The notes: generated from the letters alone by a model not told the origin. A stretch of DNA of 64,000 nt from Bdellovibrionales bacterium (GCA_043784965.1 JAYVXS010000165.1:14834-78833), one strand, 5' to 3'; counted from the stretch's first letter, positions 5,064 to 28,053 are shown. Made by a program: numbers and translations.

Positions 5064-7736
5064 TCAATCCCCTTGCCATGTTGAAACTGCCGAGACCGGA
5101 TAGACCAATGTCCCCGGCGGCTGATTTGCCAGATATGAGAAGTGTGGATCGAAGACATAATTTCGAACTGGAGCATTGTAAACCGTGCCTATTACTGGAG
5201 CTCCCAAATGATAGACCGGATAAAAGCCAATCATCACCGAGCCGGTTAGATTCATTGTCGTACCCGACCAGTCTTCTAAAAATGCGGTAATACCATTGTA
5301 TTGAAGAGCGTTGGCCTTGCGCATATATCCAGTCAAGATGGCGGCAATAAGTGAGGTGGTGGATGCATTTCGCGAGGTATAAGCCGGTGGATTAGTCCAA
5401 TCATCGTTTGCATCTGTCCAATTGTTTGAGAGTAAATAGAAACTGTCGCTACCTAGCATTGCTGGCAACCATGGTGTTGAAGTCGCAGTCGTCGTAACTG
5501 AATTGGTATTGTAGTTTCCCACTAAATACATCGGAAGATTCGTAACCAGACTTAGTCCACTAGGTATTGCCACCGCATCAAAGTTTGCGCCATTGTAAAC
5601 TCGTAGCGCATTCGGAAAAGCCACAATACCAGCCGATGAATAAGACGCACAGTCAGGAATTTCAAATCGACTTTTGGTCCCATGACCAGCAGGGTTGCCG
5701 TTGCCCCAACCATAATGATTGCCATTTGAGTAACTACCGCCCCCGCCATTTCCCGGCACCCGATCAAAATCTACTCCAGCTAATCCTGGGCGTACGTGGC
5801 TTGGTAAGTTTGAACAAAGCGCATAAGGTAAAGCCGTCTGCGTAGACGGTGAAATCGCCGGCATCTGTAAACTATCATAGGCTGCACCCTGATAAGGATA
5901 CTCTTGGGGCTGTCCAGAACCAAACCCAGTGAGTGATCCGGGCCAAGTAGCCGTTACATAAATAATACCATTGAAATTTCTACCCATTAGCTTTCCGACG
6001 CCGAAATAAGATCCGAGCTCGCCAACGGTCGCCGTCTTGAGTGCTGTCTGAAACTGACCGACGTCAAAATTGATTGGATAAATTTTACTTCTGGGAAGTT
6101 GGTTAGGCGACGGCGAATCCAATTGAAGATGTTGGTCGCGAAATCCGCCCCGAGCGGCGTTCAAAATAAATGTGGGTATGCCTGGGTCACTTCCACTTTG
6201 GCAGGTCACCGCCTGAGTTCCAGCATTACAAGGAAGTGGCGGATTAATTGCATTGATCAAACCAGAAGCTGGCGCACAGGTGATCTTTTTCCCGAAGCAC
6301 AGATCCGTCTGACCCGCACCATTCCATTGACCATTTCCCAAATTTATATTTCCGCCGGCAGTTCCAACTACCAAACTCATCCATCCCGATGGCACAAGCG
6401 GTGGGTTTGCAACTCCGCTCACACCTAGATTTCCATAAGAGAGAATGCCATTTGGATCAGCTGAAATACTTGCGTTTGCAGTCACATATTCATAAAATGA
6501 AAATCGACTCGGACCTGCCGCTGTCCATGTATAACTCACACCACGGGTTGCCCAATAGGCACGAATATCATCTTGGCCGACAGCAACTGTTTTGCTAACC
6601 GCCACAACGGGCGGACCAAATACTGCATCTGCACGCCCCGGGTGATCTGACCAAATGGGCAGGCCAGGCCAACTCGCTTGATTGGCAGGGTCCTTCAGAT
6701 ACCAGACTCCATCGATCACGCGAATATCTGCATTGTTTGCATATTTTTGCGGAGAAATTGTTGGGGTATCAGTTGCTAAAGGAGGATCGATACTAAATCT
6801 GGTATTGGTTTGGTTTGAAATTGGAGCAAACGAATTTCCATCGACACCAAATTGAGCTCGATTCTGCGTGCCCGCACCCGGAAGCCGCAAGGCCTGCCCA
6901 CCAAGGGCCTGATCCACCGCATTTACGCCCCAAGTATTGCGCGCATAAACCGGCCAAGCCTGACCCGTGCCTGCACAATTTGTGCATCCATTATCGCCAT
7001 TTGCTAGAAGCGAAGTAAAGGCTGTAAAGCTCGAATTGGTGGCGATTTTTGAAGTCCCGGTGTAGCCAGATGGATATCTACAACGGGTATCGGCCCCATC
7101 CATAATGCGGCCTGATGCCGTGATTAAACCAATCTTCAATGAGCTCCATGCGCCAAGACATGCGTCGCCATTTACATGAACTCGGCCAAGCAATGTCATA
7201 GCTGGCCTCGGCTCCCAATCGGCATAGGGCATATCTCCAAAAATCATAAATTGAAACGGATAGATTGCCCCCAGAGACATGGTGGACGTCACCGTTGAGG
7301 TCACATTTGTAAGCGTCGAACGAACGGTAATTGTAAGACTTATAGTAGTTGCCGGCGATTGCATTCCTGCAAATGGGCCTGATGGCAAAATCGAATTCGC
7401 AACATAACTTAAGACATTCACACTCACCGTTTGCAACAAATACCCTTGCGGCACTAAGGTCGGCAAATCGGCTTGAAGTTTTTGCGTCAATTCGGGGCCG
7501 GTATAACTACTTGAAACCTGAAGGTAAGCACCGAGCTGAGCTAAGGCAATTTTGCGAACTCCCTCTGCAATGTAAAAGGCTCTTTGTTGACTTAAAAAAC
7601 TTTGATTGTTGGTGACTGAGGCGCTGTATTGGTAGAGACCAACGACTCCTACTAATGAGACCGTAGCAATCAATAGACTCGCAAACAACATTACCTGTCC
7701 ATTTTCATTTTTAAGAGAATGCATTAGATTTTTCAT
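5064..7736 (-). CDS. Large pilus-associated protein with PilX-N-like N-terminus (putative tip/adhesin component)
   Basis: Last gene of the minor-pilin operon. The start is probably M4 (SD TAAGGA 8 nt upstream). The hydrophobic N-terminus NGQVMLFASLLIATVSLVGVVGL lacks a G/FxxxE prepilin site. About 850 aa are Gly/Asn/Thr-rich with scattered Cys pairs. Confidence 0.55.
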   Translation of the reverse strand: MKNLMHSLKNENGQVMLFASLLIATVSLVGVVGLYQYSASVTNNQSFLSQQRAFYIAEGVRKIALAQLGAYLQVSSSYTGPELTQKLQADLPTLVPQGYLLQTVSVNVLSYVANSILPSGPFAGMQSPATTISLTITVRSTLTNVTSTVTSTMSLGAIYPFQFMIFGDMPYADWEPRPAMTLLGRVHVNGDACLGAWSSLKIGLITASGRIMDGADTRCRYPSGYTGTSKIATNSSFTAFTSLLANGDNGCTNCAGTGQAWPVYARNTWGVNAVDQALGGQALRLPGAGTQNRAQFGVDGNSFAPISNQTNTRFSIDPPLATDTPTISPQKYANNADIRVIDGVWYLKDPANQASWPGLPIWSDHPGRADAVFGPPVVAVSKTVAVGQDDIRAYWATRGVSYTWTAAGPSRFSFYEYVTANASISADPNGILSYGNLGVSGVANPPLVPSGWMSLVVGTAGGNINLGNGQWNGAGQTDLCFGKKITCAPASGLINAINPPLPCNAGTQAVTCQSGSDPGIPTFILNAARGGFRDQHLQLDSPSPNQLPRSKIYPINFDVGQFQTALKTATVGELGSYFGVGKLMGRNFNGIIYVTATWPGSLTGFGSGQPQEYPYQGAAYDSLQMPAISPSTQTALPYALCSNLPSHVRPGLAGVDFDRVPGNGGGGSYSNGNHYGWGNGNPAGHGTKSRFEIPDCASYSSAGIVAFPNALRVYNGANFDAVAIPSGLSLVTNLPMYLVGNYNTNSVTTTATSTPWLPAMLGSDSFYLLSNNWTDANDDWTNPPAYTSRNASTTSLIAAILTGYMRKANALQYNGITAFLEDWSGTTMNLTGSVMIGFYPVYHLGAPVIGTVYNAPVRNYVFDPHFSYLANQPPGTLVYPVSAVSTWQGD

Positions 7737-7746
7737 ATCAAACATC

Positions 7747-14905: not shown

Positions 14906-15135
14906 TTCCAAGCAAAATGAAGGCCCAGTGAGGCTCAAAAACGGCCCATTAAGTCTTAAATTCTTTGCCAAGATTAATTTAGACTGCTTATAAGTTCAAA
15001 AAAAATTAGGCACAAATCCTGCTTTAGGATCCTCTCGAAATCGAGTGTGGAGCCATTTTGGAAACTGACGTATGTCAGAATTCGGGTGTTTTTCACATTC
15101 TAAAATCTAAACCCAAACGAATAAGGAATCAAAAA

Positions 15136-18100
15136 ATGAAGAAATTTTCAAAATCTCCATTACTGATTGCTCTGATCTCACTTTCGATGATGGCATCGAC
15201 TGTGACCTCAAGCTCAGCATATGGTGCAAACACCCCGGCGCAAGACCAAGCCGCCAAGGATAAATTAGCCGCTGAAAAGCTGGCTGCTGAAAAATTAGCT
15301 CAGCAAGAAGCTCAACAAAAAGCTCAGCAAGAAGCTCAACAAAAAGCTCAACAAAAAGCTCAGCAAGAAGCTCAACAAAAAGCTCAACAAAAGGCTCAGC
15401 AAGAAGCTCAACAAAAAGCTCAGCAAGAAGCTCAACAAAAAGCTCAACAAAAAGCTCAGCAAGAAGCTCAACAAAAAGCTCAGCAAAAGGCTCAGCAAGA
15501 AGCTCAACAAAAAGCTCAAGCTGCGAAGCCAGCTCCTCCGGCTCCAGCTCCTCCGGCAAAAGTTGAACCAGTAGTTATCAAGCCAGCTCCAGCTCCAGCG
15601 CCAGTTCCTCCAGTTGCTACCAAGCCAGCTCCTCCGGCTCCAGCTCCACCGGCAAAAGTTGAACAGGTAGTTATCAAGCCAGCTCCGGCGCCAGCGCCAG
15701 TTCCTCCAGTTGCTACCAAGCCAGCTCCTCCGGTAGACAAAGCGGCACAAGAAGCCAAGGCTAAAGCCGATCAAGCTGCTGCTGATAAAGCTAAAGCTGA
15801 TAAACTTGCACGCGAAGCTAAAGAAAAATTGGAGCGCAAGCCCGCTCCGCAAAATCCAGTAGGTCCTCCACCTGTAGTCGTAGCTAAAGCTGAAACTCCA
15901 GCTGAAGTTGCTGCGAAATTAGAGCAATCTAAAAAGCAAACTGCGGCGCAAGCTGCGGCAGAACGAGCTCATAAAGATAAATTAGATCAAGAGATTGCGA
16001 ATCAGGCGGCACAAAAAGCTGCTGATCCAAAAGTAAAAGACGCGCAAAAAGCAAAAGAAGATGCGGCGCAAAAAGCCGCTGATGAAAAAGCTAAAGAAAT
16101 TGCAGCGCAAAAGGCTCAAGAGAGAAAAGCCATTAAAATTGCAGAGCAAGCAAAGCTTCCGGTTGTAGTTAAAACACCACAACAAATTGAAGCAGATGCA
16201 GCAAAGGCAAAAGCGGATGCAATAAAAGCTGCTCAAAAAAAAGAGAAAGCAAAAGAGCGCATTGCTGTACCAGCTAAGACTGCTGAAATAAAAAAAGAAA
16301 ATGAAGTAAAAGCAGCTGAAGTTGAAGTGGCAAAGGTTCAGAAAAAAGAAGTGGTTGCGGTTGCAAAACAGCAAGCCATCCTTGTAAAGCAAAATGCTGA
16401 CATTAAACAAATCAGCCAGAACCCAACTGCCAAAATTACTCCAGCCCAAGAAGCTGTCATTGCGCAAAACAAGAAAACTATTGAGACTCGACAAGCAGCT
16501 CAAGCCAATAAGCCAGTAGTAGCAGCACCAACTCACTCAACTTCAGTTGTTGAATTGAAGACGGTCAATGGCGCTAAAATTGGTCTTGATCCCTCTATTA
16601 AAGTAAAAGTCGTTGTCCCAGTAACTGTTATCGTAAAGCCGGTAGTAGTTGTTGGCGGCGTAGCTGTAGCCAGCCATATGCGATCAGATGAAACCCAGAA
16701 GAATATTCATGAGGCGAGAATTCGCTCTCAGAATACGCAAAATATAATCATCAACAAAACTGACATACAAAGTGTAACCATCACAAAAAACATCACCCAT
16801 GTAACTAATGTTTATGTAAATAATTATCAAAACGTAGTGATTGAACGCTCACGTATTTACAATAATTACTACCATGAACCACAAAAGGTTTATAGAAACT
16901 ACTATAGCAGCTATTACGATCACGGCTTTCGTGGTGGATATGCCTACCCAGTTCGGGTTGACATCGCAATTCACCAGCATTTCTGGAATCCATTAGTATT
17001 GTGGATGTTTGATGATTCAAACAATAACGATTTCTATTGCCGTTATTATGGTAATTCATATTGCTATAGCTACCCAGTTCGTCCATTTCGTTATGCAAGA
17101 GTTTTCTATCCTACCGATACCATGCGAGATCTCGCAATTGAAGTCAGTGGCATGAGCTACTACCGCCATACTTACTATAGAACTGCTCTTGAGACTTTGA
17201 CTGACAAATTAAATAGTCAGATTTCAAATTACGTTTCAGGCAGATTCTATTTCGGACCAAACGATATCGTGATCAATCACTATCGCAATCTTGGCTTCGG
17301 ACAAGTAATGGTCGAAGGTTTCGTAGATCGCGGAAGTTTACATGTGGCCTTCAAAGGGCACCTTGACCTTGAGAATCCATACAACTCAAGCGTTTTCGTA
17401 CCAACCATCAGTGACTACTCGCCAGTTGCTGCTGGCATCGCTGTCCTAAATGCAATTGTTGCTCTTGAGCAAGCTGCCAACGTACGTGAGAATGTTCCTC
17501 AGAACGTGGTTTACGAGGAACCAGCTCCCCCACCAATGCCAGTAGTAAATGTGACTTGCCGTACATTTAGTGGAGATGCTAAGTTTGTTGGAGCCTCGCC
17601 AGATTCAGGTACAGCCTCACAAAGAGCCATCGAGCATTGTACTAAGAGTGCACGTGCAAATGCGACTGAGTGTACAGCGAATATATCTTGCGATGACGGC
17701 GTTTCTTACGCTCCAGTTGTAAGCTGTTCAACGAGCAGCACCGACGCTAACGGAGACGCGGTAAGCTTCTTCCGAAAAGGCCGCGATGCGGATTACGCTT
17801 CACAAATGGCTCAACAGCTTTGTATTGCTGATGATGCGACTAGTGATGTCGATGCTTGTTCAAGCCCGGACAACTTAACTTGTATTGCTTTGGACAAATC
17901 AGTCTTGAATCCAATGGCATGTAACGTGACTGTGCCGAATATTCCGGCGCCATTTAGCTTTCAGAGTTATGATAGCGATAAAGCTCGTAACCGTGCAGTA
18001 TCAGACTGCGTAACTGCAGAAGGCACGGATGTAGACGATTGTAATAACAGCGACTTCTTGAGTTGTGATTATGTCAATGCGGCACCGGTAGAACCACCCC

Positions 18101-18303
18101 CTCCAGCAGCATCTTGTATTGCTACAGGTCCTAAGACTAAGCAGTTTCCAGCTGGTCAGTCTTATCCAAGTGGTCCGGCTTCAGATTTGCGAGCAGCCTA
18201 CAATGTCGCGGTAAAAGCTTGTGTTCGCGCAAATCCATCTAGCATCGCTATCTGTAAAAGTAGCGCAATAGAGAATTGCCCGGGCGCAGGTTCAGGCAAC
18301 TAA
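15136..18303 (+). CDS. Large secreted mosaic repeat protein (Gln-rich, Pro-rich, Lys/Ala-rich, Tyr/Asn-rich, 4x Cys4 modules)
   Basis: The start is taken at MKKFSKSPLLIALISLSMMASTVTSSSAYG (SD AAGGAA, signal peptide). The mature protein is 1055 aa. The internal repeats are listed as separate features. A strong terminator follows. Confidence 0.75.
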   Translation: MKKFSKSPLLIALISLSMMASTVTSSSAYGANTPAQDQAAKDKLAAEKLAAEKLAQQEAQQKAQQEAQQKAQQKAQQEAQQKAQQKAQQEAQQKAQQEAQQKAQQKAQQEAQQKAQQKAQQEAQQKAQAAKPAPPAPAPPAKVEPVVIKPAPAPAPVPPVATKPAPPAPAPPAKVEQVVIKPAPAPAPVPPVATKPAPPVDKAAQEAKAKADQAAADKAKADKLAREAKEKLERKPAPQNPVGPPPVVVAKAETPAEVAAKLEQSKKQTAAQAAAERAHKDKLDQEIANQAAQKAADPKVKDAQKAKEDAAQKAADEKAKEIAAQKAQERKAIKIAEQAKLPVVVKTPQQIEADAAKAKADAIKAAQKKEKAKERIAVPAKTAEIKKENEVKAAEVEVAKVQKKEVVAVAKQQAILVKQNADIKQISQNPTAKITPAQEAVIAQNKKTIETRQAAQANKPVVAAPTHSTSVVELKTVNGAKIGLDPSIKVKVVVPVTVIVKPVVVVGGVAVASHMRSDETQKNIHEARIRSQNTQNIIINKTDIQSVTITKNITHVTNVYVNNYQNVVIERSRIYNNYYHEPQKVYRNYYSSYYDHGFRGGYAYPVRVDIAIHQHFWNPLVLWMFDDSNNNDFYCRYYGNSYCYSYPVRPFRYARVFYPTDTMRDLAIEVSGMSYYRHTYYRTALETLTDKLNSQISNYVSGRFYFGPNDIVINHYRNLGFGQVMVEGFVDRGSLHVAFKGHLDLENPYNSSVFVPTISDYSPVAAGIAVLNAIVALEQAANVRENVPQNVVYEEPAPPPMPVVNVTCRTFSGDAKFVGASPDSGTASQRAIEHCTKSARANATECTANISCDDGVSYAPVVSCSTSSTDANGDAVSFFRKGRDADYASQMAQQLCIADDATSDVDACSSPDNLTCIALDKSVLNPMACNVTVPNIPAPFSFQSYDSDKARNRAVSDCVTAEGTDVDDCNNSDFLSCDYVNAAPVEPPPPAASCIATGPKTKQFPAGQSYPSGPASDLRAAYNVAVKACVRANPSSIAICKSSAIENCPGAGSGN
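15298..15520 (+). repeat. Intragenic 12-nt periodic repeat (GCTCARCAARAA, encodes AQQ[EK]) x~18
   Basis: Direct reading gives AQQEAQQKAQQKAQQE... with higher-order 24/36-nt units. Confidence 0.9.
15526..15734 (+). repeat. Intragenic 96-bp tandem repeat x2.2 (encodes KPAPPAPAPPAKVE[PQ]VVIKPAPAPAPVPPVAT)
   Basis: The units start at 15526, 15622 and 15718 and are nearly identical. Confidence 0.9.
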
Positions 18304-23588: not shown

Positions 23589-23942
23589 GTGAGAAATATT
23601 TTGAGTGCGGAAAATTTGGATACGAAAGCAAAAGAGAAAATTGAAAAATTTCATGCCGATGTAGTAAAGGAAGTGGAAGCGGCAGTAAAGACAAACAAGA
23701 TTGTGATCGTAGGCATGGCTCAAAATCCCGTGGTTTCTAAAGCACGAAAAAATTTGGATACTGCTGGTTTAAAATTTAAATACTTAGAGTATGGCAGTTA
23801 CTTTTCAATGTGGAAGCCTCGCCTAGCAGTTAAGCTGTGGAGCGGCTGGCCAACATTTCCACAGGTTTTCGTTGATGCAAAACTGATTGGCGGCAATGCC
23901 GAATTAGAAGAAATGCTAAAGTCTGGTAAAATTAAAAACTAA
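23589..23942 (+). CDS. Glutaredoxin-fold protein lacking the active-site cysteine (monothiol-Grx-like)
   Basis: GTG start with SD AAGGAGGA. GWPTFPQVFVDAKLIGGNAELEEMLKSGKI aligns with Grx4 WPTFPQLWVDGELVGG. The CGFS position reads GMAQNPVV, and the protein contains no Cys at all. Confidence 0.65.
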   Translation: MRNILSAENLDTKAKEKIEKFHADVVKEVEAAVKTNKIVIVGMAQNPVVSKARKNLDTAGLKFKYLEYGSYFSMWKPRLAVKLWSGWPTFPQVFVDAKLIGGNAELEEMLKSGKIKN

Positions 23943-23959
23943 TGTGCTCCGAAAAACTA

Positions 23960-23991
23960 GCTTTCTTTCATGACCAGTCATGAAAGAAAGC
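23960..23991. terminator. Bidirectional hairpin between convergent genes
   Basis: A perfect 14-bp stem GCTTTCTTTCATGA / TCATGAAAGAAAGC with a 4-nt loop. A T5 run follows on the minus strand. Confidence 0.6.
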
Positions 23992-24008
23992 CAATAGCCT
24001 CGAAATTT

Positions 24009-25172
24009 TTAAATGTAGGATCCGCTTCGGATTTTATCGACAATGATCTTCTCAGGGGTCAAAGGATCGTTTGGATTCACCGCGAACAATGCCTGTTGCT
24101 CACATCGCAGTTTGTTTTTAACCAGCCAGTTGAGAATATCCGCAAGTTTACGATTTTTCTTGTCTTGAAAAAATGGATCATTCGCCAAAGCATCTTTAGC
24201 TTTTTTAAGCGATCTCGACTCAACTGGGTCCTTTTCGCGAACTTCGTAGCAATCCAAATCATATTTCTTCACATCCTCTGGCAAAACTCCCAGAAAATGA
24301 ACAGAAGGTGCCGAGAAATCAGAGTTACGAATCAGTGATGCCGCAGAACCGGCCTTCAAAGTTCGAAAAATATTTTGCAAAGTATAGGCGTCGAGATCTC
24401 CAAAAAAGAATATTGGAACTTTAAGTTCGGTTTGAATTAGTTTACACCAGCCGCGCACTCCATTCGACGGAACCCCTTGAGCACCCATGACAATACAGTT
24501 ATGTCTTTTCGTCATGCCATTTGACACAAGGGTTCCCGCTGTACCTTCGGACTCAACAACCAGGCAAAACTCGATTTTTTTCTTGGCCTTTAGCCTTAAA
24601 GCTTGAGGTTTATTTTTCGGCTGAAAGGGTGTTGTTCCGAGAGAACTTAAATCAACGACGGCACGGTCTCCATCCGAAAGAGTTTCAGTCACTACCAGAT
24701 GTTGCGAATAAGTTTGGCCGCCGCGATCATTGGCAAAACAATTGAGCTCTTCGCGGTAGACCTCGAGCATATCACCAATAAAATCAATAATCGAATCGCT
24801 CTCTTCTTGCGCCGTAAAATCAAGCGGCTTTAAGTTCTGAGACGACTTCACCATACCTTTTCCGATGTAATAGAGTTCGCGCTTGGTATTGACCGCACCG
24901 GTGCGAATATTTCGCAGTAGCACCTCAAGCATAAAAACCACTCTCGCCATTTTCTGAACGCTTGATACATTGAGCTCGGTGCGAACTCTCTTACTACCTG
25001 GAGTCAAATAACCGACTTTTGGATTATACAATGAGTTGTCGAGCGAACATTTAACCGCCTCAAGAACGGGGCGATTTGAATTTTCGAGCTCCTTGAGCAT
25101 GATATCACACAATGCTTTTGCTTCTGCCGGGATATCTTTAGTGAGCTTTCGAATCCTAATAATTTTATCCAT
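24009..25172 (-). CDS. top6A: DNA topoisomerase VI subunit A (Spo11-like)
   Basis: 387 aa. The 5Y-CAP catalytic motif is KRELYYIG. The Toprim Glu lies in VVESEG and the DxD in FFFGDLDAY. Confidence 0.85.
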   Translation of the reverse strand: MDKIIRIRKLTKDIPAEAKALCDIMLKELENSNRPVLEAVKCSLDNSLYNPKVGYLTPGSKRVRTELNVSSVQKMARVVFMLEVLLRNIRTGAVNTKRELYYIGKGMVKSSQNLKPLDFTAQEESDSIIDFIGDMLEVYREELNCFANDRGGQTYSQHLVVTETLSDGDRAVVDLSSLGTTPFQPKNKPQALRLKAKKKIEFCLVVESEGTAGTLVSNGMTKRHNCIVMGAQGVPSNGVRGWCKLIQTELKVPIFFFGDLDAYTLQNIFRTLKAGSAASLIRNSDFSAPSVHFLGVLPEDVKKYDLDCYEVREKDPVESRSLKKAKDALANDPFFQDKKNRKLADILNWLVKNKLRCEQQALFAVNPNDPLTPEKIIVDKIRSGSYI

Positions 25173-25184
25173 TATATCATCCCT

Positions 25185-27086
25185 TTATTTCGATTTTTTC
25201 TGAGTCGCGGCTTTTTCGGTGGCCTTCGCTTTAGACTTTGAGGCTGTTTTCTCAGTCCCCTGGGCTTGTTTTTCCGTCGCCTGTTTTTCAGTCGATTTGA
25301 CAGTCGATTTGACAGTCGAATCTTGGGCCTCTTTAGCCGTGGTTCCCTTTTGCGTGCCCTTATCTTTAGAGCCCTCAAGCTCTTCGTCTACTGGAGCTTC
25401 AAATTCAGTTAGCTCTTCGGTGAGCAATTCACTCTCAACATGGCGCTGATCAAATTTCACCCCAGCTTTGAGGGCTTTTTCTTTCAAAGCTTGCAATCGA
25501 ACCTCAGCAACTGACAGGTCTTTTTCAGCCGCACGTGTGTCTCGACCCAACAGCTTTTTCAAGCCTTCTTCGGCATTTTTTTTGCGTGTCTGATTAGCGC
25601 CGGTAATACGAACCAAGCCCTCAACCAAGATTGGACCGAATTGTTCAATATGGGCCAATTTTCTCTCAAGATCTGCTTCTTTATTTTCTTTGCGAATATG
25701 GCGAGAGAGCTGCTGGCCCGCTTGCATCAATGTACGCCTGATTTCCTCAATGAGCTCATCGGATGCATCTATTGTTTCTTTCGAGGCATTTTTAAACTTA
25801 ATAAATGGCGAGACCACACTAATGGCGAATACATAGGGGCCGGAAGGAATACTATCTTTACCTTGCGCAAGCCCATACGAACGCCAATTGACACTTTCAA
25901 CAGCTTGAGTGATCGCACATGAACTCTTATCAAACTGCAAGGGCACACGATTGGCGAAGCGAAGAAGTTGAATAGATTCATCCATGCTACCTCTGGTTAA
26001 AAACCGGGCCAAGGCCACTTCAACAACGACGGGTTTAAAATCACAAATTCGCGGTTTGCGGGTTACCACTGAGAAGAAATCGATGTCACCAAGTCGCATA
26101 ATACTTTTCGAAAGTGCTTCTTCACCAACAGTAAGTACTGATTTAGTAGAGGGGCTTTGCAATTCAACTTTTTGAATGACCTGAAAAGCAGCTTTAAATT
26201 CGCCTTCCTTCATTTTCATTACCGGCATATTCAACAAAGATTTTGGCATTCCGCCTTTAACGAGATCCTTAATTGTTTGATCACTCACTCGAGAAAAGCC
26301 AGTTTTCAAGAATTTGCCGAAATCAACTTTCCCGAAAAGGTGCGCGTGAGTCATAAATTCGCCAAGCTTCATCGTATGTGGATGCGGCAAAGTACTCTCT
26401 GGAATTTCAGGACAAATATCAGTAACCCGCTTTACCTTCACCCATTCTTGATCGACAACTTTGTAGTCTAAACTCATATGGGGATTTACTAAAGTAGTGC
26501 CCTCTAAATAGGTCAAAAGTCCACCATCACCATTTAATTGAATTCGTCCATCAATACGAAACTCAACACGGGTCCCATGCGGACGATCCCAATCGATGCT
26601 TTCCTTTTTCTTAAGGACACCCTTGTTAGCTTTAATATCGACGTCGACAAGACAACTAATTGCCTTGCGCATATTTTTCTGGATTGTCGTCACCTGCACA
26701 CCCGAAGCATTCGTCAGCTGAGCCCAGGTTGTCGCTGCCGAAATGCCTATACCCTGTTGTCCGCGTGAACATTGGCCTTTACCAAATTTACTAGAGGCCA
26801 GATACTCGCCAAAAACCTTTGCAATATCATCCGGATCAATCCCGGGACCATTATCTTCAACGACGATTTTAATTAGATCAGTTGATTTCGAACTTCCTTC
26901 GCCGATTTTTGTAATTGAAACCTTCAAGTCCGGCAAAATTGAGCTTTCTTCACAGGCATCAAGTGAGTTATCAACGGCCTCTTTAAGAGTCGTCAATACG
27001 GCTTTAAGTGGCGAAGAAAATCCCACCTGTTGCAAATTCTTTGCGAAATACTCCGCGGTACTACTGCTGGTAATTTTTTTTGACAC
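25185..27086 (-). CDS. top6B: DNA topoisomerase VI subunit B (GHKL ATPase)
   Basis: 633 aa. Bergerat-fold motifs are EAVDNSLDA (N box), EDNGPGI (G1) and GQQGIG (G2). A ~90-aa Lys/Glu/Thr-rich C-terminal tail is present. The stop lies 12 nt before the top6A start. Confidence 0.85.
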   Translation of the reverse strand: MSKKITSSSTAEYFAKNLQQVGFSSPLKAVLTTLKEAVDNSLDACEESSILPDLKVSITKIGEGSSKSTDLIKIVVEDNGPGIDPDDIAKVFGEYLASSKFGKGQCSRGQQGIGISAATTWAQLTNASGVQVTTIQKNMRKAISCLVDVDIKANKGVLKKKESIDWDRPHGTRVEFRIDGRIQLNGDGGLLTYLEGTTLVNPHMSLDYKVVDQEWVKVKRVTDICPEIPESTLPHPHTMKLGEFMTHAHLFGKVDFGKFLKTGFSRVSDQTIKDLVKGGMPKSLLNMPVMKMKEGEFKAAFQVIQKVELQSPSTKSVLTVGEEALSKSIMRLGDIDFFSVVTRKPRICDFKPVVVEVALARFLTRGSMDESIQLLRFANRVPLQFDKSSCAITQAVESVNWRSYGLAQGKDSIPSGPYVFAISVVSPFIKFKNASKETIDASDELIEEIRRTLMQAGQQLSRHIRKENKEADLERKLAHIEQFGPILVEGLVRITGANQTRKKNAEEGLKKLLGRDTRAAEKDLSVAEVRLQALKEKALKAGVKFDQRHVESELLTEELTEFEAPVDEELEGSKDKGTQKGTTAKEAQDSTVKSTVKSTEKQATEKQAQGTEKTASKSKAKATEKAATQKKSK

Positions 27087-27453: not shown

Positions 27454-28053
27454 ATGACATTAGAAAGAAAATGGATTCTACGCTTTACTTGTTTAGCGTT
27501 TCTACCCTTTGCCATAGCTGTAGAACCACCGCCGCAGGCTGCTCCCGCCGCACCTCCTACGACAACTCTCGAGAAAATCAAAATCAACGAGATCGCGACG
27601 AAGAGCCCCCAGGGTCTCGAAAAAAAGACCAAAAAATCAGGGGATGCCAAAAAAGAAAAAAGTGTTTTAAAAATTCCAGCAGAAATTAAAAATTTAATCA
27701 TTGAAGACCTGCTGCCAGGTTCTGGCCGAGCAGCGGTCAAAGGAAAAAGCGTCAAAGTAAACTATACCGGTTGGTTTTTTGATGCAAAACAACCGCAATT
27801 GAAGGGTTTTCAGCTCGATTCCTCAGAAGGCAAAGAGCCCTTTGAATTTACCCTAGGTGAAAAGCAGGTGATCGCCGGATGGGATGAAGGTTTAGTCAAT
27901 ATGAAAGTTGGTGGAAAGCGAAAACTTTATATTCCAGCGGAGCTGGCCTATGGCAGCCGTGGCACTCGTGATGGCGTTGTTCCGATCAATCAGGCTTTGC
28001 TTTTCGAAATCGAACTACTCGACGTAATGGATGAAAAAACCGTGCTAAAATAA
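27454..28053 (+). CDS. FKBP-type peptidyl-prolyl cis-trans isomerase, secreted
   Basis: Signal peptide. VKVNYTGWF...FEFTLGEKQVIAGWDEGLVNMKVGGKRKLYIPAELAYG...LLFEIELLDV. Confidence 0.85.
   Translation: MTLERKWILRFTCLAFLPFAIAVEPPPQAAPAAPPTTTLEKIKINEIATKSPQGLEKKTKKSGDAKKEKSVLKIPAEIKNLIIEDLLPGSGRAAVKGKSVKVNYTGWFFDAKQPQLKGFQLDSSEGKEPFEFTLGEKQVIAGWDEGLVNMKVGGKRKLYIPAELAYGSRGTRDGVVPINQALLFEIELLDVMDEKTVLK

Follow-up and report, generated by a model that had tools for sequence, protein, structure and literature searches.

A Topo VI operon of an uncultured Bdellovibrionales bacterium with a disordered, acid-then-basic tail on subunit B

Topoisomerase VI (Topo VI), a type IIB enzyme, is marked by ATP-dependent strand passage and a double-strand break with a 2-nt stagger. 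For bacterial Topo VI overall, archaeal donors have been proposed (PMC11302465), and the enzyme of Bdellovibrio bacteriovorus (Bd2864/Bd2865) has already been published (PMC11302465, PMC11318664). According to Allen and Maxwell (2024), the B. bacteriovorus lineage has gyrase and Topo VI and is without Topo IV, which is kept only by representatives of Pseudomonadota and Terrabacteria (PMC11302465), and M. mazei Topo VI rescues a temperature-sensitive parE mutant of E. coli (unpublished data of the same authors, PMC11302465). This account is at odds with a review in which B. bacteriovorus is credited with a 'Top IV (Bd0005)'. Biochemical or genetic data on any bacterial Topo VI were not found in the literature searched. 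For M. mazei Topo VI (PDB 2Q2E; cryo-EM 9O0G, 9O8P), cryo-EM has revealed that the gate-DNA arms follow the outer edge of Top6B and that the C-terminal hairpin rests on the winged-helix domain of Top6A (PMC13040014); the basic KGRR loop of its Top6B is a T-segment sensor and is essential there. The enzymes of Saccharolobus shibatae (Topo VI, PDB 2ZBK) and M. jannaschii (Top6A, PDB 1D3Y) are minimal and, like the protein described here, are without the folded, acidic Ig-like C-terminal domain that M. mazei Top6B carries.

The locus compared with these systems lies in a 64,000-nt stretch of DNA from an uncultured Bdellovibrionales bacterium (the window), in which the original prediction, made from the sequence, had placed a Topo VI B-A pair at 24009-27086. 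Both open reading frames were found there on the minus strand, as are all subunit features given below. Subunit B is encoded by top6B (25185-27086; 633 aa, GTG start, stop codon at 25185-25187) and subunit A by top6A (24009-25172; 387 aa, ATG start). The spacer of 12 nt from the B stop to the A start (25173-25184, AGGGATGATATA) contains a purine-rich ribosome-binding site, with AAAGGGA overlapping the top6B stop codon; it is kept in the nearest relative, L001, and across related loci the B-A gap varies from about -8 to +30 nt. B and A would be co-expressed as a translationally coupled operon. As also predicted, a Grx-like gene (23589-23942) and an FKBP gene (27454-28053) flank the pair, and the chromosomal context is an ordinary one, with non-mobile, housekeeping neighbours and with GC and GC3 of the operon matching the background. 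A functional link to these two neighbours was rejected, as the Grx gene was present in 5 and the FKBP gene in 22 of the best 80 of 353 related loci, among which no conserved neighbour gene was detected. An Rfam scan of the window at gathering thresholds gave zero structured-RNA matches, and promoter and terminator scans of the window gave no gain over shuffled sequence and were not used.

Subunit A matched Pfam TP6A_N in the winged-helix/5Y-CAP domain (24741-24956; 51.2 bits vs a cut-off of 26, E 1e-13) and TOP6A-Spo11_Toprim in the Toprim domain (24075-24569; 124.5 bits, E 6e-36, Pfam cut-off passed). Its best solved relative in a phmmer search was M. jannaschii Top6A (1d3y_A, E 2e-31), in agreement with the placement of one bacterial Top6A cluster near Methanococcales (PMC11302465). 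The RELYY motif (R98-E-L-Y-Y102, 24867-24881), the Toprim glutamate E207 (VVESEG, 24552-24554) and DLD (D259-L-D261, 24390-24398), all three of them anticipated, line up with REAYY, IETSG and DGD of this structure. From M. jannaschii Y103 and yeast Spo11 Y135 we take the second tyrosine of RELYY, Tyr102, to be the catalytic one. On its best NCBIfam equivalog, NF003335, subunit A remained below the cut-off (396.3 bits vs 424), a near miss that is consistent with a divergent bacterial lineage.

Subunit B reached 508.9 bits on the NCBIfam Topo VI-B equivalog NF003218 (cut-off 274) and matched Pfam HATPase_c and Topo-VIb_trans (E 6e-46). M. mazei Top6B was its best match both by sequence (phmmer, 2q2e_B, E 5e-80) and by fold (Foldseek with the predicted model, 9o0g_B, E 3e-49), and Top6B structures ranked far above GyrB and ParE in the fold search. 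The M. mazei protein shares with it the catalytic residues and the order of GHKL, H2TH, transducer/stalk and hairpin. The GHKL (Bergerat) ATPase domain (residues 1-234, 26385-27086) contains the N box KEAVDNSLDA (35-44, 26955-26984), the G1 box EDNGPGI (77-83, 26838-26858) and the G2 box SRGQQGIGIS (107-116, 26739-26768), which had been predicted and which align with the solved structures. It is followed by the H2TH domain (residues 235-311, 26154-26384; placed by alignment to M. mazei Top6B with the limits of PMC13040014), modelled by AlphaFold as confident helices, and by the transducer domain (residues 312-540, 25467-26153), which includes the stalk helices and the C-terminal hairpin and in which the model has helices at 443-495 and 499-540. 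The stalk and hairpin helices, which bind Top6A in Topo VI, are thus present. In an alignment of 32 Top6B sequences (28-94% identity), E36, N40, D78-N-G-P-G82 and G109-x-x-G112-x-G114 were invariant, and so were W401 and Y404 of WRSY (W401-R-S-Y404, 25875-25886, corresponding to the WKxY motif) and the switch lysine K436 (25779-25781).

With subunit B above its equivalog cut-off and both subunits above the Pfam cut-offs, the claimed Topo VI identity stands: judged by sequence, the pair represents genuine, intact Topo VI genes, and Top6B-Top6A would form a complete and catalytically competent A2B2 type IIB topoisomerase. Topoisomerase VIII, a fused B-A polypeptide, and Mini-A are type IIB relatives borne by plasmids or viruses, with B and A modules fused or an A-like protein by itself. 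They are unlike the window pair, which has two separate full-length genes, a housekeeping context and background composition. The literature describes Topo VIII as plasmid-borne.

B. bacteriovorus, represented by complete chromosomes, has the same orthologous B-A pair, with 76-77% identity in A and 72-73% in the core of B. Its Top6B also shares the loop QLNGDGG and a two-part tail plan with the window protein. The repeat units and the flanking genes are different, and the B. bacteriovorus tail, ending in GTKKTTTKK.TTKKTTGKKK, measures about 50-57 aa vs about 91 aa in the window (97 aa beyond the family model). Compared with M. mazei Top6B, the window protein has retained the basic H2TH residues and some of the basic patch on the stalk, whereas K399 is replaced by N, R457 by Q and KGRR (186-189) by LNGD. 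The latter lies within QLNGDGG (residues 183-189, 26520-26540), a loop with zero Lys or Arg, the sequence of which was identical in the 45 close homologues listed and in 4 others checked. The same loop window was without K/R in 9 of 76 other full-length Top6B representatives, so a basic KGRR loop is not universal to the family. As the equivalent of the T-segment sensor is non-basic here, ATP turnover may be coupled to strand passage in another way. Compensation for the lost loop by the C-terminal tail was considered and rejected, because Binatia-like Top6B combines a basic loop with the same two-part tail; Binatia-like and Pirellulales loops stay basic, reading RYQ-KGRASVD or KYQ-RGRGSVD.

Beyond the hairpin, M. 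mazei Top6B continues with its Ig-like domain and the window protein with a disordered, acid-then-basic tail (residues 541-633, 25188-25466). A folded C-terminal domain of at least about 100 aa after the hairpin was not found: in the AlphaFold model residues 543-633 have pLDDT < 50 and no secondary structure, so that the predicted length of about 90 aa was accurate, and the tail sequence that had been pointed out, TVKSTVKSTEKQATEKQA, is present in subunit B. The alignment of the 530-residue S. shibatae chain takes in the hairpin and reaches residue 510, and that chain lacks room for such an extension. The tail begins within a clade-conserved motif (residues 537-549), which reads KQAKAGLLF[ST]AS in most relatives and has diverged to KALKAGVKFDQRH here. 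An acidic segment (residues 546-573, 25368-25451) with a net charge of -10 is followed by a basic, K/T/A-rich segment (residues 574-633, 25188-25367) with 16 Lys and a net charge of +9, the latter tying as the most K/T/A-rich 40-aa stretch in the 55 long ORFs of the window. The original prediction of a Lys/Glu/Thr-rich tail with internal repeats was correct in that the tail is real, low in complexity and rich in K/T/A/E, and does contain repeats. It is not uniformly Lys-rich, however, but acidic and then basic, with a near-neutral net charge of +2 over residues 537-633. The 12-bp DNA repeats expected near 25290-25315 correspond to a perfect tandem repeat at 25289-25319 (no strand assigned; 2.6 copies, encoding STVK-STVK-ST), which was reported by Tandem Repeats Finder (score 62, 100% matches); an imperfect 15-bp pair encoding EKQAT-EKQAQ comes next. 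The DNA binding also proposed originally for the tail is plausible for its basic end. In the literature searched the tail is apparently undescribed.

Our explanation as a whole, namely a competent Topo VI encoded by a coupled B-A operon that is an old core feature of the lineage, serving as decatenase and bearing a disordered two-part tail on subunit B, is in our judgement highly probable. By homology, ATP binding would lead Top6B to dimerize and to capture the transfer duplex, Top6A would use Tyr102 and the Mg-binding residues E207, D259 and D261 to cleave the gate duplex, and through this break the transfer duplex would then cross. The tail would leave the C-terminal hairpin, docked on the winged-helix domain of Top6A, beside the DNA channel. 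We tentatively suggest, as a possibility that falls somewhat short of being probable, that the basic end increases affinity or processivity through non-specific contacts with the gate-DNA arms, with the acidic segment serving as a spacer or competing within the same molecule to tune this binding.

A functional parallel may be seen in Streptomyces TopA, an actinobacterial topoisomerase I and thus another bacterial topoisomerase with a Lys-rich, repetitive, low-complexity C-terminal extension, whose lysine repeats stabilise the enzyme-DNA complex and give high processivity (PMC5714199). TopA belongs to type IA and is unrelated; the likeness is functional only and implies no common family. The hosts are alike in that Streptomyces and Bdellovibrio both form a multigenomic filament whose many chromosomes have to be segregated. 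Plant Topo VI also has an elaborated C-terminal region on its B subunit and relies on extra factors, BIN4 and RHL1, but there the additional functions are supplied by proteins encoded separately, together with a C-terminal domain that is folded (PMC9665070).

The tail might be a neutrally drifting, low-complexity product of replication slippage, either functionless or a mere spacer that holds the stop codon of B and the ribosome-binding site of A in position, and several observations fit this: the 12-bp repeat is perfect, column identity is 0.38 in the tail vs about 0.9 in the core, and tail length among species runs from 6 to 143 aa, with some lineages retaining only about 26 aa, from which it also follows that a long tail is not essential. 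Moreover, the repeat units differ even between the window and L001, the catalytic cores of which are 96-97% identical, L001 having GTEKQ in 4-5 copies at the site of the STVK repeat. Against drift, the acid-then-basic order was kept in 106 of 106 long tails of the clade; the opening 40 aa had a median net charge of -8 over the 106 homologues, and the closing 40 aa had a net charge of at least +4 in every long tail. Both tail ends are conserved, as seen in a comparison including L001 and in the motif consensus among relatives, and in a distant bacterial Top6B clade with a core identity of ~30% the same order recurred in 92% of the 104 tails. Gain and loss of repeats thus remodel the tail and the charge order stays. 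As drift is not expected to keep charges segregated over such distances, we regard it as unlikely, though it deserves to be taken seriously.

Less likely still, and in our view improbable, is that the tail acts as a hub for protein interactions, with short linear motifs through which the enzyme would be brought to the replisome, SMC or nucleoid proteins. This would be comparable to plant RHL1 and BIN4, which are predicted to touch the C-terminal and GHKL domains of TOPOVIB (PMC9665070). The KQAKAGLLF[ST]AS motif that opens the tail in most Bdellovibrionales would suit such a role, but it is the motif that has diverged in the window. A second candidate, Q-M-[ST]-L-G-F, was present in 32 of 120 Binatia-like tails and in zero cores, and it resembles a beta-clamp-binding motif. 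For Bdellovibrionales such a motif had to be rejected, since it was detected in 0 of 121 tails, and the idea of a hub is further weakened by the lack of a known partner protein and of a conserved neighbour gene.

In place of drift, one could go beyond the DNA-contact reading and regard the tail as a module with a function, typical of Topo VI-B in bacteria, that replaces the archaeal Ig-like domain and plant BIN4/RHL1 and is maintained by selection. This bolder view is rather doubtful, but it would have consequences. The recurrence in two clades at ~30% core identity, one of them with the clamp-like Q-M-[ST]-L-G-F, would then reflect selection; the basic end would grip the gate-DNA arms along Top6B or tether the enzyme to nucleoid or replisome, with binding gated by the acidic segment, and a slow, crossing-dependent enzyme of archaeal type would have become the sole efficient decatenase of bacteria lacking Topo IV, including in the polyploid growth filament of Bdellovibrio. 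Disordered acidic-then-basic tails occur repeatedly in bacterial Top6B at the place that a folded domain takes in some archaea, and the Bdellovibrionales enzyme is without the basic sensor loop that M. mazei Topo VI cannot do without; from tail and loop one might learn how type IIB topoisomerases are tuned for work as a bacterial decatenase.

The enzyme itself is most likely the dedicated decatenase and positive-supercoil relaxase of the cell, given that gyrase, but no Topo IV, is reported for B. bacteriovorus. The presumed job, decatenation and relaxation of positive supercoils beside gyrase, is that of bacterial Topo IV (ParC/ParE), although the latter is a type IIA enzyme of other architecture; type IIA topoisomerase genes, including those of Topo IV, were absent from the 64-kb window. 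Such a role would suit a predator in which several chromosomes are replicated in one filament before synchronous division, and a predator that unlinks several chromosomes per filament without Topo IV would be a good system for the study of bacterial Topo VI function.

That the pair could instead be a Spo11-like or Toprim-nuclease module making regulated double-strand breaks in defence or recombination, rather than a housekeeping topoisomerase, is extremely improbable. Top6A homologues do serve as nucleases in Spo11 complexes, Wadjet and Gabija (PMC13040014), and the T-segment sensor loop is non-basic here. However, the ATPase motifs are complete, the switch lysine is invariant, the DxD motif is intact, subunit B lies above the Topo VI-B equivalog cut-off, and the pair sits in a housekeeping context and is conserved across the lineage. 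The B-like subunit of Spo11-TopoVIBL is recognized by degenerate or absent GHKL motifs and a linker instead of the H2TH domain (PMC9665070), whereas subunit B has both intact ATPase motifs and an H2TH domain. Membership in a defence system was rejected, as neither subunit had a PADLOC match, and, unlike in Wadjet JetD/MksG and Gabija, SMC-like or helicase partner genes are absent beside the pair.

Equally remote is a recent transfer of the operon from an archaeon or a virus that would make it peripheral to host biology: the proposed archaeal origin of bacterial Topo VI (PMC11302465) and a nearest Top6B relative outside the phylum on a virus-like contig speak for it, while background GC and GC3, the adjacency of the pair in the best 80 of 353 related species-level loci, the identity gap given below and the absence of mobile-element genes nearby speak against it. 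Upstream of the virus-like Top6B homologue (P0128), a 391-aa gene had no Top6A similarity in BLASTP and tblastn and no PHROGs match. The sporadic presence in bacteria that had been claimed does not hold within the lineage, since B and A were found side by side in every one of the best 80 of 353 species-level related loci, all from Bdellovibrionota-type genomes, including complete B. bacteriovorus chromosomes. From this adjacency, the background composition and the housekeeping neighbours, recent horizontal transfer was rejected, and the operon is an old, lineage-wide and already known feature of Bdellovibrionales. As Bdellovibrio Topo VI is already catalogued, it adds only another uncultured member. 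A commonplace bacterial clade with a characterised function would, by the original prediction, have counted against it; a lineage-wide, known clade was found, but in the literature searched a characterised function was not. For the phylogenetic question we relied on Allen and Maxwell (2024) and on the Top6B identities, which are at least 56% inside the clade vs at most 39% outside, a sharp gap that indicates long independent evolution of the clade.

The original prediction of a Topo VI (type IIB topoisomerase) B-A gene pair carrying the catalytic signatures was borne out in every detail by family scores, motif alignment and a structure model, and the operon is real and correctly identified. 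It consists of top6B (25185-27086, minus strand; 633 aa, GTG start) and top6A (24009-25172, minus strand; 387 aa, ATG start), separated by a spacer of 12 nt, AGGGATGATATA, with a purine-rich ribosome-binding site inside. Top6B matched Pfam HATPase_c and Topo-VIb_trans (E 6e-46) and, over residues 2-536, scored 508.9 bits with NF003218 (cut-off 274), the NCBIfam equivalog for Topo VI-B. Top6A matched TP6A_N and TOP6A-Spo11_Toprim, and its score with the best NCBIfam model, NF003335, was 396 bits, slightly below the 424-bit cut-off. Foldseek comparison of the AlphaFold model of Top6B (mean pLDDT 79, core ~90) gave as best match M. mazei Top6B in the cryo-EM structures of 2026 (E 3e-49), with GyrB/ParE ATPase domains far lower than Top6B structures. 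When Top6A was aligned with that of M. jannaschii (phmmer, E 2e-31), R98-E-L-Y-Y102, E207 and D259-L-D261 corresponded to REAYY, IETSG and DGD respectively. Similarly, the Top6B motifs aligned with Top6B of M. mazei (E 5e-80) and S. shibatae (E 9e-60), namely the N box KEAVDNSLDA, G1 EDNGPGI, G2 SRGQQGIGIS, the WKxY motif, which reads WRSY, and the switch lysine K436; all five are invariant columns in a 32-sequence Top6B alignment (28-94% identity), and the motif coordinates were checked by translation.

By homology, the gene pair would encode an A2B2 type IIB topoisomerase, in which ATP-driven dimerisation of Top6B would capture a transfer duplex and Top6A would cleave the gate duplex by means of Y102 together with the Toprim residues that bind Mg (E207, D259, D261), the transfer duplex then passing through. 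In the survey of Allen and Maxwell (2024; PMC11302465), which counts 17 Topo VI-containing bacterial families, B. bacteriovorus is included, its Top6B lies outside both main bacterial clusters, and Topo IV besides Topo VI was found only in Pseudomonadota and Terrabacteria representatives, seven species in total (in agreement with the five plus two in their table), leaving Bdellovibrio with gyrase and Topo VI. As the absence of Topo IV is thus published for the lineage, the cellular job of the enzyme is likely decatenation and relaxation of positive supercoils. Topo VI as decatenase in place of Topo IV has been suggested by the same authors, who cite unpublished data on complementation of a temperature-sensitive E. 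coli parE mutant by M. mazei Topo VI (PMC11302465). In a review of the Bdellovibrio chromosome, Bd2864 is labelled Topo VI, Bd2865 'Top II' and Bd0005 'Top IV' (PMC11318664), the last being at odds with the Topo IV-less scoring in PMC11302465. Bd2865 is evidently Top6B, and old automatic annotation is the probable source of the review's gene labels. Bd0005 is presumably gyrA. Experimental work on Bd2864 or Bd2865 was not found in a literature search. The operon itself is a known, lineage-wide feature of Bdellovibrionales. What is new is modest, namely a disordered Top6B tail of two parts that is conserved and found again in other Topo VI enzymes of bacteria, without mention in PMC11302465 or PMC11318664, and a non-basic T-segment sensor loop.

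A scan with subunit A, taking one genome per species, led to 353 relatives, the best 80 of which all belong to Bdellovibrionales- or Pseudobdellovibrionaceae-type genomes, a few of them loosely labelled, e.g. as Pseudomonadota and one as Bacillota. The closest Top6A matches (97% identity) come from metagenome-assembled genomes of glacier-fed streams, and complete B. bacteriovorus chromosomes reach up to 76-77%. Each of these best 80 loci has top6B immediately upstream of a co-directional top6A, the gap in related loci being about -8 to +30 nt, and the flanks vary (FKBP in 22 of 80, Grx-like gene in 5 of 80). GC/GC3 values of the two genes (0.435/0.428 and 0.440/0.404) are indistinguishable from those of the other 30 long ORFs (GC 0.434±0.019, GC3 0.408±0.035). 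The surrounding genes have housekeeping functions (NusB, RsmB, YccF, a PPDK-regulator-type kinase, peroxiredoxin, a SelD-like gene, ribosomal protein S1 and type II secretion genes), among which no mobile-element genes were found; a search for defence systems gave no match. Across a representative library clustered at 50% identity, the identity to Top6B drops sharply from at least 56% within the clade to at most 39% outside. Adjacency in 80/80 loci, background GC/GC3, housekeeping neighbours and this identity gap argue for a core operon that the lineage has long passed on vertically; composition, context and the gap, together with the lineage-wide presence, also led us to reject a recent acquisition.

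Regarding the C-terminus of Top6B, the family model NF003218 stops at residue 536 and the last stalk-hairpin helix spans residues 499-540 of the AlphaFold model, followed by residues 543-633 with pLDDT <50 and no secondary structure. This tail comprises an acidic segment (residues 546-573, DQRHVESELLTEELTEFEAPVDEELEGS, net charge -10) and a basic segment (residues 574-633, 16 Lys, net charge +9), which ties as the most K/T/A-rich 40-aa stretch among 55 long ORFs of the window. A perfect 12-bp repeat of 2.6 copies (25289-25319) encodes STVK-STVK-ST, and the nearest relative (L001), 96-97% identical in the catalytic parts, shows GTEKQ four to five times at this position, with the two ends of the tail and the ribosome-binding site behind it kept, indicating that gain and loss of repeats remodels the tail middle. 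Column identity in 120 close homologues is 0.38 in the tail versus ~0.9 in the core, and tail length ranges from 6 to 143 aa (median 64; 78 species-level loci); neutral low-complexity drift would be a somewhat doubtful explanation of the tail. Among the 106 of these 120 homologues with tails of at least 60 aa, the last 40 aa are basic without exception (net at least +4, median +6) and the first 40 aa are acidic in 98% (median -8). Most close homologues share the tail start motif KQAKAGLLF[ST]AS, diverged to KALKAGVKFDQRH in the window, and the B. bacteriovorus tail of about 50-57 aa ends in GTKKTTTKK.TTKKTTGKKK.

Cryo-EM of M. mazei Topo VI revealed a bent 74-bp gate DNA, the arms of which follow the outer edge of Top6B and contact its H2TH domain, WKxY motif and stalk, and the C-terminal hairpin of Top6B docked on the Top6A winged-helix domain (PMC13040014); a tail leaving this hairpin would therefore begin beside the DNA channel. 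By analogy to Streptomyces TopA, whose C-terminal lysine repeats confer processivity (PMC5714199), the lysine-rich disordered end could provide non-specific contacts to the DNA arms, and the acidic segment could serve as spacer or internal competitor, a reading of the tail that we prefer tentatively.

The acid-then-basic tail is not peculiar to Bdellovibrionales. Several distant representatives that lack the M. mazei-type folded C-terminal domain carry basic C-terminal runs behind an acidic or proline-rich linker, and a profile search seeded by these representatives gave 120 bacterial Top6B proteins, with named examples from Candidatus Binatia and Pirellulales. Their 104 tails of at least 40 aa have a median net charge of -7 in the first and +13 in the second half, with the acid-then-basic order in 92%; Pirellulales-type tails are shorter and largely acidic. 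A conserved motif Q-M-[ST]-L-G-F, typically KQMTLGFE, occurs in 32 of the 120 distant disordered tails and in no core (homologues P0277-P0393, e.g. P0323 from Candidatus Binatia). We take it to resemble a beta-sliding-clamp-binding motif, which would suggest recruitment of these distant Top6B to the replisome. Nothing like it was detected in 121 Bdellovibrionales tails, and a protein-interaction role of the tail appears unlikely.

The KGRR loop of M. mazei Top6B (186-189) senses the transfer segment and is essential for strand passage (PMC5922973), whereas its counterpart in the window is L-N-G-D within QLNGDGG (residues 183-189, 26520-26540), without a basic residue. QLNGDGG is identical in all close homologues checked, and a loop without K/R was observed in only 9 of 76 other full-length Top6B representatives. 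Likewise, N and Q occupy the positions of K399 and R457 of the M. mazei stalk/WKxY patch, but basic residues close by (SRHIRK) are retained. A basic KGR loop is kept in the distant set from the Binatia/Pirellulales profile search, tailed members included, which rules out the tail as compensation for a missing KGRR loop.

The nearest Top6B relative outside Bdellovibrionota, P0128 (L082:8001-9659; 38% identity, E 6e-107), ends in KQKKKSKKK and is located on a viral- or mobile-looking contig (L082:1-17407, 36% GC) encoding RuvC, RecA/Rad51, a DEAD-box helicase, a DnaB-like helicase (phrog_19) and many ORFs without family match. No recognisable Top6A was found on this contig, and the 391-aa gene directly upstream of P0128 has neither Top6A similarity nor a PHROG match. 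In a 70%-GC bacterium (L081:3001-7094, 1.4-Mb contig) a gene for an ABC substrate-binding protein lies between top6B and top6A, so that B-A is not always contiguous outside Bdellovibrionales.

The nearest relative (L001, Top6A 97% identical) has an additional 418-aa gene with a hydrophobic segment at the N-terminus (L001:7560-8816) between top6A and the Grx-like gene, where the window holds a mere 66-bp spacer (23943-24008), indicating recent gene gain or loss. The Grx-like neighbour (23589-23942, plus strand, 117 aa) matches the glutaredoxin fold weakly (Pfam E 4e-5) and scores under the NCBIfam Grx4 cut-off. As it contains no cysteine, with AQNP near the expected place of the CxxC/CGFS active site, it cannot be a redox-active glutaredoxin. 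Two large ORFs (15058-18303, plus strand, 1081 aa; 5064-7745, minus strand, 893 aa) gave no Pfam match at E <=1e-5, and the former contains a Lys/Ala-rich stretch, AAKAKADAIKAAQKKEKAKE..., with a composition as extreme as that of the Top6B tail.
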